DNA of 64,000 nt, taken from Escherichia coli. GTDB lineage: Bacteria; Pseudomonadota; Gammaproteobacteria; Enterobacterales; Enterobacteriaceae. The notes below the pieces were generated by a model that was not told where the DNA came from, did no database searches, and was given only the letters and a program-made list of their open reading frames with translations. Below, piece by piece: positions 9,062 through 15,733 of the stretch. The position numbers were made by a program, and so were the translations under genes. Numbering within the stretch: position 1 is the first letter of the stretch; each line of letters begins with the position of its first letter. The stretch lies in NCBI RefSeq assembly GCF_044324785.1, contig NZ_CP172127.1; one strand, given 5' to 3'.

Positions 9062-10688
9062 GGATTCGGACGATTTCCTGGACTGCTTTATTATGCCAGC
9101 CCGCATTGTTGGCGGTACATTTCAGGGATGACTGCACCCAGCGAAAATTTTATACGCCGCTCGTTATACCATCTGATGTAAGCATCCACATGCCGCATGA
9201 ATTTTTCAGGCGTGATACCCAATCATTTACGCCCATAATATATTTCAGTTTTCAGTCTGCCGAAAAAGCCTTCGCATGCAGCATTATCAGGCGAGCATCC
9301 TTTACGGGACATTGAGCGAATAAGGCCTGCTGTATTCACTCTTTCCAGCCAGGCCAGCGATAATGCCCACCTCTGTCACTGTGTATCACCGGTCGTTCGC
9401 CAGCATTTAACGTTTCGACAGCGTTATCCAGCATAGTGTTGACCAGTTCAGCATCGGGGCGTGTACTGAGAGACCAGCTCACAACTTTTCTGTCGAAGCA
9501 GTCCACCACCGGTGATAGCCAGACTTTTCCTGCAGGAAGCTGGAACTCCGTGATATCTGTCAGCCATTTCTGATTAGGTTGCTCCGCCTTAAAATCTCTG
9601 GCGATAAGGTTATCCGGAGAAGGTCCGATTTCTCCGCAATATGAGCTGTAGCGGCGATGACGGTTACGGCTGACGACAAGCTGTTCCTCCACCATAAGTC
9701 TGCGTACAACCTTTTCTGATAGCCGATCCCCCTCATGCCTGAGCATCGCATGCAGGCGACGATAGCCATAACACTGGTAATTACTGTTAAATATATCTGT
9801 CAGCATCGTACGTATCGTGGCGTATTTATCACTGGCTTTCAGTGCAGCCCGGTGATAAAAATAACTGCTACGGGCAAGGCCCAGAACATGCAGTAATTCT
9901 GTCAGGGGATATGTTTATCTCAGGGCATCAGTAATCTTTGTTTTTTCTCTGTTGTTCAGGTGACTGATGCTGATGCCCGGGTCTTTTTTTATTATTTCCT
10001 CCGCTTTTTTCAGAATATCCAGTTCCATCTGCCGGCGGCGTATTTCCTGATTCAGTCGGGCGACTTCCTCCCGCAACGCATCGCGTTCTGCCTCCAGGGA
10101 AGGGGCGTTATGTTTACGCATAGTCTGGTAAGCACTGTTGCCGATAATTTCATCTTTCCATTTATACAATACCGCGCGACTGACACCAATACGCCTGGCG
10201 ATTTCACTGGCTGATCCTTGTCGTGTACAGAGTACCATGACAGCCTGACGTTTGACTTCTGGTTCAAAGGACGCAACCGGATTGGTCTTACTGGTAAATA
10301 CACGTCGTCTGTCGGGGGAACGTTCATTAACCCAGCGAGCGAGCATATCGGTACAGGGATAACCCAGAGTCCTGCTGGTAAACGCCAGGCAGCAGCCGTG
10401 GTTAAGATAATGTTCAACGGCAACCTGTTTTTGCTCATCGGAGTAACGGTGCTTATGACGAATGGATTCTTTTGATCCGCCACCTGCTTCCCATGAACGG
10501 ATCCAACGCCGCAGATTTCTTTTCGAAGGGTAGCCCAGTTCGCGTACGACGGGGCCAGCTTCTTACCATATTTGAAATAAAGCTCAATGGTGCGAATTTT
10601 TTGTTCTTCAGTAAACATGTTTCATCTCCTGAGAGTCCAGGAAATCGTCCGCATCCCCTAACGGTCAAAAATCGTGGCGTTGATACAG
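9062..10688 (-). mobile_element. DDE (rve) IS-like element, copy 1, decayed; about 50-bp terminal inverted repeats
   Basis: Left end TGTATCAACGCCACGATTTTTGACCG (reverse complement at 10688); right IR lacks about 35 terminal bp; transposase carries a 1-bp frameshift after MFTEEQKIRTIELYFKYGKKLA, a TAA where copy 2 has CAA (Gln), and further shifts near the 3' end. Confidence 0.65.
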
Positions 10689-10868
10689 GGGAAATCCGTA
10701 GTTTTTGATGCCAGCCATAACGTGTTTGACTATAAAGTATTACGAAAGGACTTTAATGAGCCCCTGGAATAATTCATTAAAGTAATTTACTTCGCTATCC
10801 TTTTCCCAGTTACTCACAAAGAAAAATATTCATAAAATAATTCCCGGGCTGGCAGCCCGGGATGATTA

Positions 10869-12131
10869 CTATTTTAATGGATTGTTAATCTTTGCATATT
10901 CAAACGGGCTGATACATTGTTCTCTGTTCGCACCCAGAAAATCTGCCCACCACTGTAGCATCAGTCGACGTTCTTCCAGATGTTCTGCTTTATGGATATA
11001 TGCAGCACGTACACCATTACGCTCCTGATGGCTCATCTGACGTTCCACAGCATCGCGGGACCACAAACCTGATTCAATCAATGCACTGCACGCCATCGCC
11101 CGGAATCCATGACCACAGACTTCCTGGGTTGTGTCATATCCCATCACCCTCAGGGCTTTATTTACAGTATTTTCACTGATCGGTTTACGCGGGTCATGTG
11201 CTCCCGTAAAGATCAGACCATTTTCACCAGCCCATGTCTGTAGTTCTGTCAGTATGGCTACAGCCTGTTTGCTGAGTGGCACAAGATGTGGTGTTCGCAT
11301 CTTGGAGCCCCGGTGTGAGTATTTTACGCCTGGCAGAGGTTCGCGTTCGGCTGGAATAGTCCACATGGCATTGTCAATATCAATTTCAGACCAGCGGGAA
11401 TATCTGAGTTCACTGGAACGAATAAAAACCAGTAAATTCAGCATAACTGCCAGTCGGGTGACAGGCTGACCTTTATAACCGTCAATACGCGACAGAAGTT
11501 CAGGCAGGCGTGAAAGATCCAGAGCAGGGCGATGCTGGCGTTTTACCGTGGTCAATGCACCAGCCATATCCAGAGCCGGGTTATATCTGATGATGCCAGA
11601 CTGTACGGCATAACGCATTACAGCAGATATTCTTTGCTGCAGACGACTGGCGATTTCATAAATTTGTTTTGCTTCTGCAGCACGAACAGGGATAAGCAGG
11701 TCCGGGGTATTGAGTGTTGTGATATCCCGGTTGCCGATAAAGGGGAAAACGTGTGTCTCGAGGCTTTTGATTACTTTATCGCTGTGTGATTGTGCCCATT
11801 GTTTATTACTGGCATGCCAGCGTCGTGCAATATGTTCAAAAGAGAGTTGTAAATCAGGGACTACTTTTTTAGCTCTTTTTTGTTCGCAAGGGTCAATCCC
11901 CTCTGAAATCAGTTTTCGGGCCTCATCCCGTTTTGTACGAGCTTCGGAGAGAGAAACTTCTGGATATACACCAAGTGCCAGAGTCTTCTCCTTACCCAGA
12001 ATACGATAACGGAGACGCCAGTAACGGGAACCATTAGGATGAACCAGCAGGAACATGCCAGCCCCGTCAGTGAGTTTATAAGCCTTGTCAGTGTGCTTTG
12101 CAGCCCGGATTTTTGCGTCAGTCAGTGCCAT
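10869..12131 (-). CDS. P4-type tyrosine integrase (CP4-like island integrase)
   Basis: 420-aa ORF; N-terminal LTDAKIRAAK..GMFLLVHPNGSRYWRLRYR arm-binding domain and C-terminal catalytic region (HGFRAM...RAAY). Confidence 0.9.
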   Translation of the reverse strand: MALTDAKIRAAKHTDKAYKLTDGAGMFLLVHPNGSRYWRLRYRILGKEKTLALGVYPEVSLSEARTKRDEARKLISEGIDPCEQKRAKKVVPDLQLSFEHIARRWHASNKQWAQSHSDKVIKSLETHVFPFIGNRDITTLNTPDLLIPVRAAEAKQIYEIASRLQQRISAVMRYAVQSGIIRYNPALDMAGALTTVKRQHRPALDLSRLPELLSRIDGYKGQPVTRLAVMLNLLVFIRSSELRYSRWSEIDIDNAMWTIPAEREPLPGVKYSHRGSKMRTPHLVPLSKQAVAILTELQTWAGENGLIFTGAHDPRKPISENTVNKALRVMGYDTTQEVCGHGFRAMACSALIESGLWSRDAVERQMSHQERNGVRAAYIHKAEHLEERRLMLQWWADFLGANREQCISPFEYAKINNPLK

Positions 12132-12295
12132 AGTTCAGCCTTCTGAATGCGTTAAAGAGGGTACAAATTCTGTCGAACTGGGGTATACCCGCAATTATAC
12201 CCACACAATGGGGTTGATGTGGGGGGAATCTGGTTGAGTTCGGTAGAATTGATTTGGAGGCAGAACGCTTAAATTGTGGCGTTCTGAAACGAAAA

Positions 12296-12317
12296 ACGGA
12301 CCTCCGTGGAGGTCCGT
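12296..12317 (-). terminator. Rho-independent terminator hairpin downstream of the tRNA-Phe 3'-end copy
   Basis: Perfect palindrome ACGGACCTCCGTGGAGGTCCGT followed on the minus strand by TTTTCGTTTC. Confidence 0.5.
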
Positions 12318-12328
12318 TGATATGAATT

Positions 12329-12347
12329 TGGTGCCCGGACTCGGAAT
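12329..12347 (-). repeat. Copy of tRNA-Phe 3' end (att core) without tRNA body
   Basis: Minus-strand ATTCCGAGTCCGGGCACCA equals the last 19 nt of E. coli tRNA-Phe; upstream sequence does not match the tRNA body. Confidence 0.65.
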
Positions 12348-12594
12348 GAAACTGGTTGTATAACAAGTTGTTTTATATTGATTGTTTTGTGTTTGTTATT
12401 TTTGAGGCCACCAATGAGGCCCCCATGTGCAATTCGAATTCTTTTGACGCTATAATCCCTCTTTCTTGTGGTTTGTTGTAATCATTTTGTCTGGTTCGAT
12501 ATGCTGAATCGCGGAATCGAAGTGACAACAAAATACAGAGATTTATAAAATACCTGGCTACCTGTGTTAGGGAGCGTTAACGCACAGATTTTGT

Positions 12595-12921
12595 TTATGG
12601 CTGCCAGAAATGATCTGATGGTTTGTCGTCTGGCTCTGCAAGTACCCTGTTGATATCCCGGGAACCATGAACGATACGTTCGATACGAACTTCAGTATCC
12701 AGTACCCTGAACAGCAGAAGGTAACGACCATACGAACAACCTCTGATCCCAGCCCCTAACTCGGGTCTTTCTCTGTAGAGTACTGGCGATTCGGCTATCA
12801 ACAGACATTGTTGGTAAAGCTCTTCGGTAAAACTGATTGCACGGACAGGATTATCCTGAGCGATCCAGTCACCTATAGCTTCAAGATCGTGTTCTGCTAA
12901 TGGTGAAACAGTCAGTTTCAT
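12595..12921 (-). CDS. parE: ParE-family type II toxin
   Basis: 108-aa ORF; ParE/RelE-like sequence; overlaps upstream antitoxin by ATGA. Confidence 0.75.
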   Translation of the reverse strand: MKLTVSPLAEHDLEAIGDWIAQDNPVRAISFTEELYQQCLLIAESPVLYRERPELGAGIRGCSYGRYLLLFRVLDTEVRIERIVHGSRDINRVLAEPDDKPSDHFWQP

Positions 12922-13181
12922 ATTGGCTGTTCACCTTCTGCCATCTTTTTGTATTTGTGCGTCAGTCGCCCGAATACCTCTTCAGCACTTTTACTTTCAC
13001 CGCTGTTGATGCCTGCGGTCACGGCGCTCTGGAGTGATTCAAGCTTTATCTGCTGTTCCCGTTCTTCCAGAGCACGAAGTCCGGCACGAATGACTTCACT
13101 TGTATTGTTGTACCGACCACTTTCTATTTGTTCGCGGATAAACGTTTCAAAGTAAGGACTGAGGGATACACTGGTAGGCAT
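12918..13181 (-). CDS. parD: ParD-family (RHH) antitoxin
   Basis: 87-aa ORF; RHH-type segment NTSEVIRAGLRALEEREQQ; overlapping stop/start with parE. Confidence 0.75.
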   Translation of the reverse strand: MPTSVSLSPYFETFIREQIESGRYNNTSEVIRAGLRALEEREQQIKLESLQSAVTAGINSGESKSAEEVFGRLTHKYKKMAEGEQPI

Positions 13182-13252
13182 GGTTATTTTCTCGCCGATT
13201 GATCACTATCAATTAATAATAGTTAATATTCGTGAATTGTAAAATACCTCTT

Positions 13253-14122
13253 TTATGCCTTGCTGCTTTTGTTCACTGTGCTTGCCAGGGCTTCCGGGTA
13301 GTGTCTGGCAATAATATCATTAAGCCTGTCAACCAGCTCTGGTTTCCTGAACGTGATGTGCGCGGAGCCCTTCTTAAAGTATCTGATGCTGAACATCTCA
13401 TCTTCATAGTCCTCTTTACCCTGAACAGACTGGATGTGATCATCCAGATGAATGGTGATGTTTTCCCGGTTGTCGGGGATCGGTTTGCCGCTGAACAGGT
13501 GTAGCATTCTTTCCAGATCGGCAAGTCGATCTGCCTGTGGGCCGTTGTTCAGATGAAACCCCCACCGGTCCCACCTCACCAGGTTGTTGACGATAATTTT
13601 ACTGCCAAATTTGCAGGGGCAATTGGTTTTGTAATTCCAGCTCAGTCCCCTGAAGACGTTGATCACCCCTCGCTCAAACACCTCATCCTTATTCTGGTGC
13701 AGTTGTTCAAATGTGCTCAGAATGTTCGCTTCGCAGATTTCCGGAAAATTATCGTACTCCAGTGACCGGTACCATGTATCACGGGCTTGTGCATCCATTA
13801 ATGACAGCATCCCTGAACGTTGCATCAGGTCACGCCAGAGTTCGCGATCGAGATTCCGGGTGATGGCTTTCATTGCGGTTTCCGGTTTCTCCATCAGCCA
13901 GCAACCGCAGCGAAAATCCTGTTTCATGGCCCAGTCCCGGGCGGTTTTACCTCCAATACTTTCTGTCATTGCTGATATTTCAGCCAGTTGCCGGATAAGT
14001 GTGTCGATTTGCAGCAGTGTACTCTTTCGTACAGCCAGAATGTGGCGGATACTGGTTGAGCAAATAACGTCCGTATGCCCGGTGACCACTTCCGGACGGG
14101 AGGCTGTGATATCTGACATCAT
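13253..14122 (-). CDS. Hypothetical protein (DUF4942-like, as often found next to cbtA/cbeA)
   Basis: 289-aa ORF; family name recalled from context, not verified. Confidence 0.4.
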   Translation of the reverse strand: MMSDITASRPEVVTGHTDVICSTSIRHILAVRKSTLLQIDTLIRQLAEISAMTESIGGKTARDWAMKQDFRCGCWLMEKPETAMKAITRNLDRELWRDLMQRSGMLSLMDAQARDTWYRSLEYDNFPEICEANILSTFEQLHQNKDEVFERGVINVFRGLSWNYKTNCPCKFGSKIIVNNLVRWDRWGFHLNNGPQADRLADLERMLHLFSGKPIPDNRENITIHLDDHIQSVQGKEDYEDEMFSIRYFKKGSAHITFRKPELVDRLNDIIARHYPEALASTVNKSSKA

Positions 14123-14412: not shown

Positions 14413-14901
14413 TTACCAGTTGAAAGTGGGTAAACCCGGCAGGCATTCAGCGCTGGCATCCAGATGAATGAGACTGACGCCATAACGTCGGGTAAGTGTG
14501 ACAACCAGACGGCGGAACGTTTTTGACAGGCCCAGGCGCTTAAGCCGCAAAACCGGGTATGACCACGCATCGGTACGTAACAGATATCCGCTACCTGTGA
14601 AATGAATCCATTCTGATTCGCCGGTGTCATTCGTCTGATGTGACAGCGAGTACAACCAGGCATTGTCCGTTTCCGTGATATGTGCGGTACTGCAGCGTAT
14701 GCCGGTAAGGGCCGCAGATGGTGGCGTGCGCTCTGCTGATGCCCGGTCAGATTCATCAACAACACGAAGGGAGTAACCGTTATCGCAGACCACGTTAATC
14801 AGTTCAGCGAGAGTAACACCATCGACGTCAACGACAATGCGCCCCATGTTCAGTGCCTGCACGTTAATGCTGTCGGCTTCCAGCGTCAGGGCCAGTTTCA
14901 T
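14413..14901 (-). CDS. Hypothetical protein downstream of cbtA (YeeW-region protein)
   Basis: 162-aa ORF immediately 3' of the toxin gene; position-based call. Confidence 0.45.
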   Translation of the reverse strand: MKLALTLEADSINVQALNMGRIVVDVDGVTLAELINVVCDNGYSLRVVDESDRASAERTPPSAALTGIRCSTAHITETDNAWLYSLSHQTNDTGESEWIHFTGSGYLLRTDAWSYPVLRLKRLGLSKTFRRLVVTLTRRYGVSLIHLDASAECLPGLPTFNW

Positions 14902-15275
14902 TGTTTCGCCCCCGGATGTTTACCCAGGGTAATGTTATTTACCGTTCTGTAATTTTCGCGGGCCATCAGGCCGGTTGCCCGGCGTGCCCGGAGGATATCA
15001 ATACTGTTTATTAACTGAGAACGGGTACAGGCGCTGAATCCCGGCTGGTCGGTACGTACCAGCGCGTATTTTTCAACGAGAAAGTTCACCGCATCACACA
15101 GTGAAATGCCCGCTTCAATATGCTGCTCAATCACACGTTCATCAGCGAACGGTGTGTCATTCAGCGCGAGGCCGTAGTGCTGGTCCAGTAACCGGGTGAG
15201 CAGTGTCTGCCAGATGGTGACGGGAGACGGGCAGCACGATGCCTCCCGTACATGCGTGTCGGGTAATGTTTTCAT
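14898..15275 (-). CDS. cbtA: CbtA/YeeV-family type IV toxin
   Basis: Start MKTLPDTHVREASCCPSPVTIWQTLLTRLLDQHYGL...; strong resemblance to YeeV/YkfI/YpjF. Confidence 0.8.
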   Translation of the reverse strand: MKTLPDTHVREASCCPSPVTIWQTLLTRLLDQHYGLALNDTPFADERVIEQHIEAGISLCDAVNFLVEKYALVRTDQPGFSACTRSQLINSIDILRARRATGLMARENYRTVNNITLGKHPGAKQ

Positions 15276-15364
15276 AATGAAGATTTTCCTGATATGCAGA
15301 GATAAAAAATGGGACAGTGGCGTGGTGAAAGCACCAGGCCGGAGCAGAAGGTTATTCTGGAGAG

Positions 15365-15733
15365 TTACTTTTTCGTTTCGGGCGTCGGATAAACAGCCAT
15401 ATAAACGTAGCCACAACTGCCGAGGGTGTCGGCTTCGCAGGTCAGCCCTTTTGCATACAGTGTCACGGTATGCTGATGGCGGGGATTCAGTTCACCGCTG
15501 GTGAGCATGAGTTCCAGTTGTTTCATCAGCAGCGGAAAGGCCTGGTCCAGGTGGTACGAATCCGCGTCGCTGAACCGCCCTCTAATACAGGCGCGGTCGG
15601 CAAGGTAATGCAACCGGTTGCCTTCCTGTACCAGACGGGCACCAAAACAGGGCGTCACGGTGCAGGGCAGTCCCCACCAGGTGCGGTCGTTATTGTCGTC
15701 GGGAAGCGTTGTCCCGGGGAGTGTGTCTGACAC
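15365..15733 (-). CDS. cbeA: CbeA/YeeU-family antitoxin
   Basis: MSDTLPGTTLPDDNNDRTWWGLPCTVTPCFGARLVQEGNRLHYLADRA... matches YeeU/YfjZ/YafW. Confidence 0.85.
   Translation of the reverse strand: MSDTLPGTTLPDDNNDRTWWGLPCTVTPCFGARLVQEGNRLHYLADRACIRGRFSDADSYHLDQAFPLLMKQLELMLTSGELNPRHQHTVTLYAKGLTCEADTLGSCGYVYMAVYPTPETKK

Follow-up and report, generated by a model that had tools for sequence, protein, structure and literature searches.

A 19-nt tRNA-Phe fragment as the probable border between two tandem genomic islands in Escherichia coli

Why should the last nucleotides of a tRNA gene stand directly in front of an integrase gene when the tRNA itself is nowhere to be seen? The question is raised by a 64,000-nucleotide stretch of an E. 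coli genome, here called the window, in which the sequence ATTCCGAGTCCGGGCACCA occurs as a single exact match at 12329..12347 on the minus strand. It is the final 19 nt of E. coli tRNA-Phe, as seen in loci L009, L011 and L013, and on the minus strand the reading order is ...caaccagtttc, then ATTCCGAGTCCGGGCACCA, then aattcatatcAACGGACCTCCacggGGAGGTCCGTTtttcg... A first-pass annotation of this DNA had proposed that the last 19 nt of tRNA-Phe are present here without the body of the tRNA, and both parts of that proposal were borne out. The match runs exactly from 12347 to 12329, and because the 90 nt upstream of it share no more than about 20% identity with the tRNA context, the junction holds a fragment and no tRNA body. 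ARAGORN called zero tRNA genes anywhere in the 64-kb window, and an Rfam scan of positions 10500-13500 found no tRNA, its sole match being a chance snoRNA (E = 0.74), so that neither program placed an intact tRNA-Phe body beside the repeat.

A second copy of the 19-mer, with up to 3 mismatches permitted, was not found in the whole window, where shuffled sequences gave a chance expectation of 0.02 matches. A further copy is thus absent from the window and present in relatives, intact tRNA-Phe genes lying upstream of the same island end in VTB96959v and NB4833. The predicted partner of the repeat is found in VTB96959v, where an intact pheV lies 73 kb upstream of a 100%-identical junction. The 19-mer has the same orientation as pheV in both relatives, which is the orientation by which Islander recognises a displaced fragment. 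Judged by its sequence, the 19-mer is a displaced tRNA-Phe fragment, the putative attR core of one island (island A) and at the same time its border with a second (island B).

On the downstream side, island B opens with a left arm (12132..12328, minus strand) that includes the upstream region of the integrase gene and is 100% identical to its counterparts behind the intact pheV of strain Z30 and behind the end of an integrative and conjugative element (ICE) in TUM9803. Within this arm lies an intrinsic terminator of tRNA-Phe (12295..12318, minus strand), in which a hairpin with a 10-bp stem and a 4-nt loop, read from 12318 to 12295, is followed by a T-run; its minimum free energy is -20.9 kcal/mol (z = -3.3), and equally good folds were obtained in 0 of 200 shuffles. 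The terminator sequence is identical to the one behind the intact pheV of Z30 and the pheU of C600; NB4833 has a different terminator at its native pheV. Because it is present behind an intact pheV or pheU wherever island B or a remnant of it occurs, the hairpin is best read as a tRNA terminator that was probably carried in by island B's own arm. In the tandem arrangement the terminator is orphaned, with a tRNA fragment rather than a gene in front of it, and it could incidentally block read-through from parDE into the integrase gene.

That gene, intB (10869..12131, minus strand), is intact and encodes a tyrosine integrase of 420 aa with the Pfam domains Arm-DNA-bind_3 (PF13356), Phage_int_M (PF22022) and Phage_integrase (PF00589). 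Over 97% of its length the protein is 54.4% identical to the Int protein of phage P4 (E = 9e-150), and by this 54% identity and its domain layout it is placed, as a predicted protein, in the P4 family; the description of a terminator followed by a P4-type integrase gene therefore stands. A terminator-like hairpin follows immediately past intB (10842..10862, minus strand). Judging by coordinates transferred from locus L001, intB is succeeded directly by 90 nt that remain of a phosphoethanolamine transferase gene, and these by an IS3-family element with a frameshift (window 9091-10772); the transferase gene is complete in other strains, and island B has therefore been eroded here by IS insertion.

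On the upstream side of the 19-mer lies the right, or distal, arm of island A, which extends from parE to the core (12348..12594, minus strand), is about 90% identical to the arms in NB4833 and E16, and was found in about 1180 E. coli records. The final gene of island A is parE, encoding a toxin (12595..12921, minus strand; Pfam ParE_toxin, 9e-18), and is preceded by the gene for the antitoxin ParD (12918..13181, minus strand), which matches NCBIfam TIGR02606 at 5e-28 and exceeds the curated cut-off. Then come a DUF4942 gene (13253..14122, minus strand), known from the annotation of near-identical matches and the usual distal gene of CP4-type islands, and a cbtA/cbeA pair encoding a type IV toxin-antitoxin system (14901..15733, minus strand), identified with Pfam at E-values of 4e-62 for CbtA_toxin and 2e-54 for CbeA_antitoxin; an NCBIfam search of the CbtA, CbeA and DUF4942 open reading frames gave zero matches. 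The suggestion that ParDE and CbtA/CbeA represent the distal end of a separate island holds, as the same module closes a pheV-anchored island in NB4833 and VTB96959v.

Each of the two att arms also contains one pair of direct repeats of 10-11 nt with 12-nt spacing: a tandem 11-nt repeat at 12403-12425 in the arm of island A (TGAGGCCACCA/TGAGGCCCCCA) and a tandem 10-nt repeat at 12184-12205 in the arm of island B (TATACCCGCA/TATACCCACA). These repeats are candidate arm-type integrase sites. A similar GGGGGC-rich motif is present in the arm on the intA side of the VTB96959v island.

The nature of the junction was then judged from other genomes, for which the 19-mer and its flanks were extracted from nine E. 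coli loci. Across these loci the similarity to the window changes partner exactly at both edges of the 19-mer. In NB4833, a 90%-identical arm of island A leads into the 19-mer, after which come ctaattcttaagaacccgcccacaaggcgggttttt and yghD; this side is taken as the island-free pheV flank, yghD being the gene that flanks the site in both NB4833 and VTB96959v. NB4833 therefore presents island A alone, in the order yqgA, intact pheV, intA, about 109 kb, ParDE, arm, 19-mer, native pheV flank and yghD, and the integrase beside its pheV is WP_001218742, of 394 aa. In E16, the arm of island A and the 19-mer are followed by a pheU-type remnant and cadC. The opposite state, island B alone, is seen in Z30, where yqgA and pheV are followed by the same terminator and integrase. 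A tRNA-Phe gene bordering directly on the integrase was found in 23 of 40 sampled records, evenly spaced among 5421 matching records, so that by this sample terminator and integrase stand directly behind an intact tRNA-Phe gene in about half of the E. coli genomes.

The variant of the right flank in the window matches the pheV-linked form (Z30, VTB96959v) and not the pheU form of K-12, and for this reason pheV is favoured as the tRNA gene that was displaced. In C600, which is of the K-12 type, pheU is followed by the same 114 nt including the terminator, a 160-nt C-terminal integrase remnant and cadC. The C600 remnant (L009 3005-3380, between pheU and cadC) looks like an internally deleted and decayed element of the island B type. 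In TUM9803 (NZ_CP135671.1), a SPI-7-like ICE ends in a 52-nt copy of the tRNA-Phe 3′ end, behind which stand the same terminator and intB, and since the end of the ICE adjoins terminator and intB, a different element is in tandem with island B there. The corresponding interval, L003 17946-18023, is annotated as a "tRNA-Ser" by PGAP and is actually a fusion of ICE-end DNA with the last 52 nt of tRNA-Phe, i.e., the attR of the SPI-7-like ICE, in which ARAGORN calls no tRNA; the annotated gene is probably a pseudo-tRNA that was named wrongly.

With at least 80% coverage required of a 601-nt query that has the 19-mer at its centre, the complete junction was detected in 219 of the 5426 complete E. 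coli genomes (about 4%). VTB96959v, in which the 601-base query is matched with 100% identity, shows the tandem, in the order yqgA, pheV, intA (394 aa), 73 kb, ParDE, 19-mer, intB and island B, with 73,144 bp from the 3′ end of the tRNA to the end of the internal repeat. Its island A carries raffinose genes, a type I restriction-modification system, CdiA, microcin H47 genes and the CP4-type distal module. All four states are thus found in nature: A alone, B alone, A followed by B, and the ICE followed by B. Each island has an integrase of its own, intB within the window and intA (WP_001218742) beside pheV in the relatives, beyond the window; the two are paralogues with 42% identity, which is consistent with two distinct elements sharing one common target. 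An intact proximal tRNA would likewise lie outside the window; in the relatives with the same island end it is found 73 kb (VTB96959v) and 109 kb (NB4833) upstream.

The far end of island B is less regular. A closing repeat was not found between positions 1 and 12328 of the window, and the end of island B lies outside it. In VTB96959v (L014), the 30 kb that end at yghD contain no copy of the Phe 3′ end, even when up to 3 mismatches are permitted. Island B is separated there from yghD by a group 2 capsule (kps) cluster (L014 8500-27750), and the tRNA-Phe repeat is absent on both sides of this cluster. The distal island B thus looks degenerate at its far end, and as no closing repeat precedes yghD, it may be immobile or fixed in VTB96959v. 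The circle junction of island A was sought with a synthetic attP-type query, composed of its right arm, core and left arm, and was matched at 80% coverage or more in 0 of 5426 complete genomes.

How could such a structure arise? An element that integrates into a tRNA gene brings the gene's 3′ end along as a copy in its attP, so that integration regenerates the gene while the original 3′ fragment moves to the far end of the inserted element (PMC4383910). Because a core remains at either end after every integration, a next element can enter at one or the other and build a tandem array (PMC7192596). At the present locus, site-specific integration into a tRNA-Phe gene, most likely pheV, would have displaced its 3′ fragment. 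Island A would be the large CP4/P4-type element responsible, its 394-aa integrase lying beside the regenerated tRNA past the right edge of the window, and island B would start immediately after the 19-mer with a left arm that holds the tRNA terminator and the intact P4-type integrase gene. If both islands share the 3′ segment of tRNA-Phe as their target, tandem accretion would follow, and the internal core would be a hybrid att site with an arm of A on its 5′ side and an arm of B on its 3′ side. Island B may have arrived first, with A entering the regenerated tRNA afterwards, or A may have come first, with B entering its attR; either order yields the same structure. That the junction was made by integrase-mediated recombination is what we infer from its anatomy; the anatomy itself, the exact breakpoints and the separate occurrence of the halves are plain observations. 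Very probably, then, the 19-mer represents the core of island A's attR, with island B beginning directly after it, and the array reads tRNA, A, core, B. The original reading of two tandem islands with the repeat as their boundary is supported in this way, as each half occurs separately and breaks off exactly at the edges of the repeat.

Other histories have to be set against the tandem array. The ParDE and integrase segments could belong to a single composite island that moves as one unit, within which the 19-mer is an inert scar; the identical junction in 219 genomes could indeed mean that the pair was inherited or transferred as a block, and the island B of VTB96959v has no distal repeat. 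Yet the halves are found singly at tRNA-Phe elsewhere, each with its own integrase, and they also have other partners, B standing behind the ICE in TUM9803 and A bordering on the pheU remnant in E16, which makes the composite island improbable. Still less probable is that a local tRNA-Phe gene lost its 5′ 57 nt through a deletion or IS insertion, without any integration. The region is rich in IS elements, and the pheU of K-12 shows that deletions happen in this arm, but the comparative breakpoints contradict this account: what precedes the 19-mer is an island arm, conserved and with the same breakpoint beside three different downstream contexts, and the relatives have an intact pheV at the other end of the island. 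That the 19 nt match tRNA-Phe by chance is refuted by the 0.02 matches expected in shuffles even at 3 mismatches and by a position that coincides with a conserved att junction.

The window ends (64000) inside an autotransporter gene, so that intA and the intact tRNA would be beyond view; four IMG/VR contigs with the exact 41-mer of the window end contain no junction, tRNA or Phe repeat and have a different context. For positions 12300-37000, the best match among complete genomes has 96.5% identity over 86% of the length, and positions 39100-64000 match islands that TUM9754 and strain 104 carry at selC, with 99.8-99.9% identity. This last portion carries an autotransporter, IS66 copies, a TonB-dependent receptor, UgpB, a phytase-like esterase, PTS genes, ManNAc-6-P epimerase genes and a YadA-like adhesin. 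As the source of the selC-like cargo, a rearrangement of selC and pheV islands by inversion or deletion was considered and rejected, the same cargo being present at pheV in NB4833, at pheU in GPEC172 and at selC in TUM9754. The occurrence of closely related cargo also at pheV (NB4833) and pheU (GPEC172) indicates that CP4-type islands are mosaics whose modules have probably been exchanged between islands at different tRNA genes. Since 39100-64000 matches selC islands and the tRNA-proximal end is outside the window, the left island boundary assumed for the source genome is taken from the relatives. The integrase at pheV, WP_001218742 (L013 46386-47567), and that at selC, WP_001218900 (L004 6496-7677), are 63% identical overall, and their final ~75 residues are almost identical; these near-identical C-termini suggest that recombination may have taken place inside integrase genes.

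Satellite phage P4 integrates at leuX, and its integrase has the same three-domain layout as IntB; short tandem repeats are found upstream of intB, as in the attP of P4. Unlike P4, the element described here targets tRNA-Phe, and no P4 replication or capsid-size genes were seen beside intB. In the ICE/CIME accretion of Streptococcus thermophilus, two elements are arranged in tandem around one att core and can yield alternative excision products; the shared att core is similar here, although no conjugation module was found in either island. The E. coli pheV and pheU islands (PAI V536, PAI-CFT073-pheV/pheU and the LEE/OI-122 mosaics), which occupy a well-known island hotspot (review PMC7545054), share with the present islands the target tRNA, a P4-family integrase beside it, mosaic CP4-type cargo and, distally, CbtA/CbeA; in relatives, the kps cluster and yghD are likewise found downstream. 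The cargo described here consists of PTS and transketolase genes, a TonB-dependent receptor, autotransporters and ParDE, and apparently represents none of these named islands. A further comparison is with the tandem tRNA island arrays catalogued with Islander and TIGER (Hudson et al. 2015, PMC4383910; Mageeney et al. 2020, PMC7192596), from which the locus differs in nothing of type: there is, as seen in the relatives, an intact tRNA at one end, a displaced 3′ fragment between the elements and one tyrosine integrase for each, and the internal copy of the core forms the boundary. Unlike a full Islander array, the window displays the internal boundary only, and in at least one relative the distal island is without a closing repeat. 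Apart from this missing distal fragment, the structure agrees with what Islander defines as a tandem array.

The junction is therefore real and was correctly interpreted, but it is ordinary, since tandem occupancy of tRNA genes is textbook knowledge and this exact junction is already present in hundreds of public genomes. It is doubtful, though conceivable, that the hybrid att site may still recombine, with A, B or A and B together excising as alternatives. If this were true, the array would be a platform for accretion and cis-mobilisation that reshuffles CP4-type modules among pheV, pheU and selC. A separate and likewise doubtful idea is that the terminator now insulates intB from transcripts running on from parDE. 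The value of the locus is limited to annotation and to tracing how mosaic islands are assembled, with no new biology beyond those uses. For these purposes, it supplies an exact boundary that is useful in annotating two mobile islands at the tRNA-Phe hotspot of E. coli, and an example of a P4-type island that apparently brings along its own terminator for the tRNA being regenerated.
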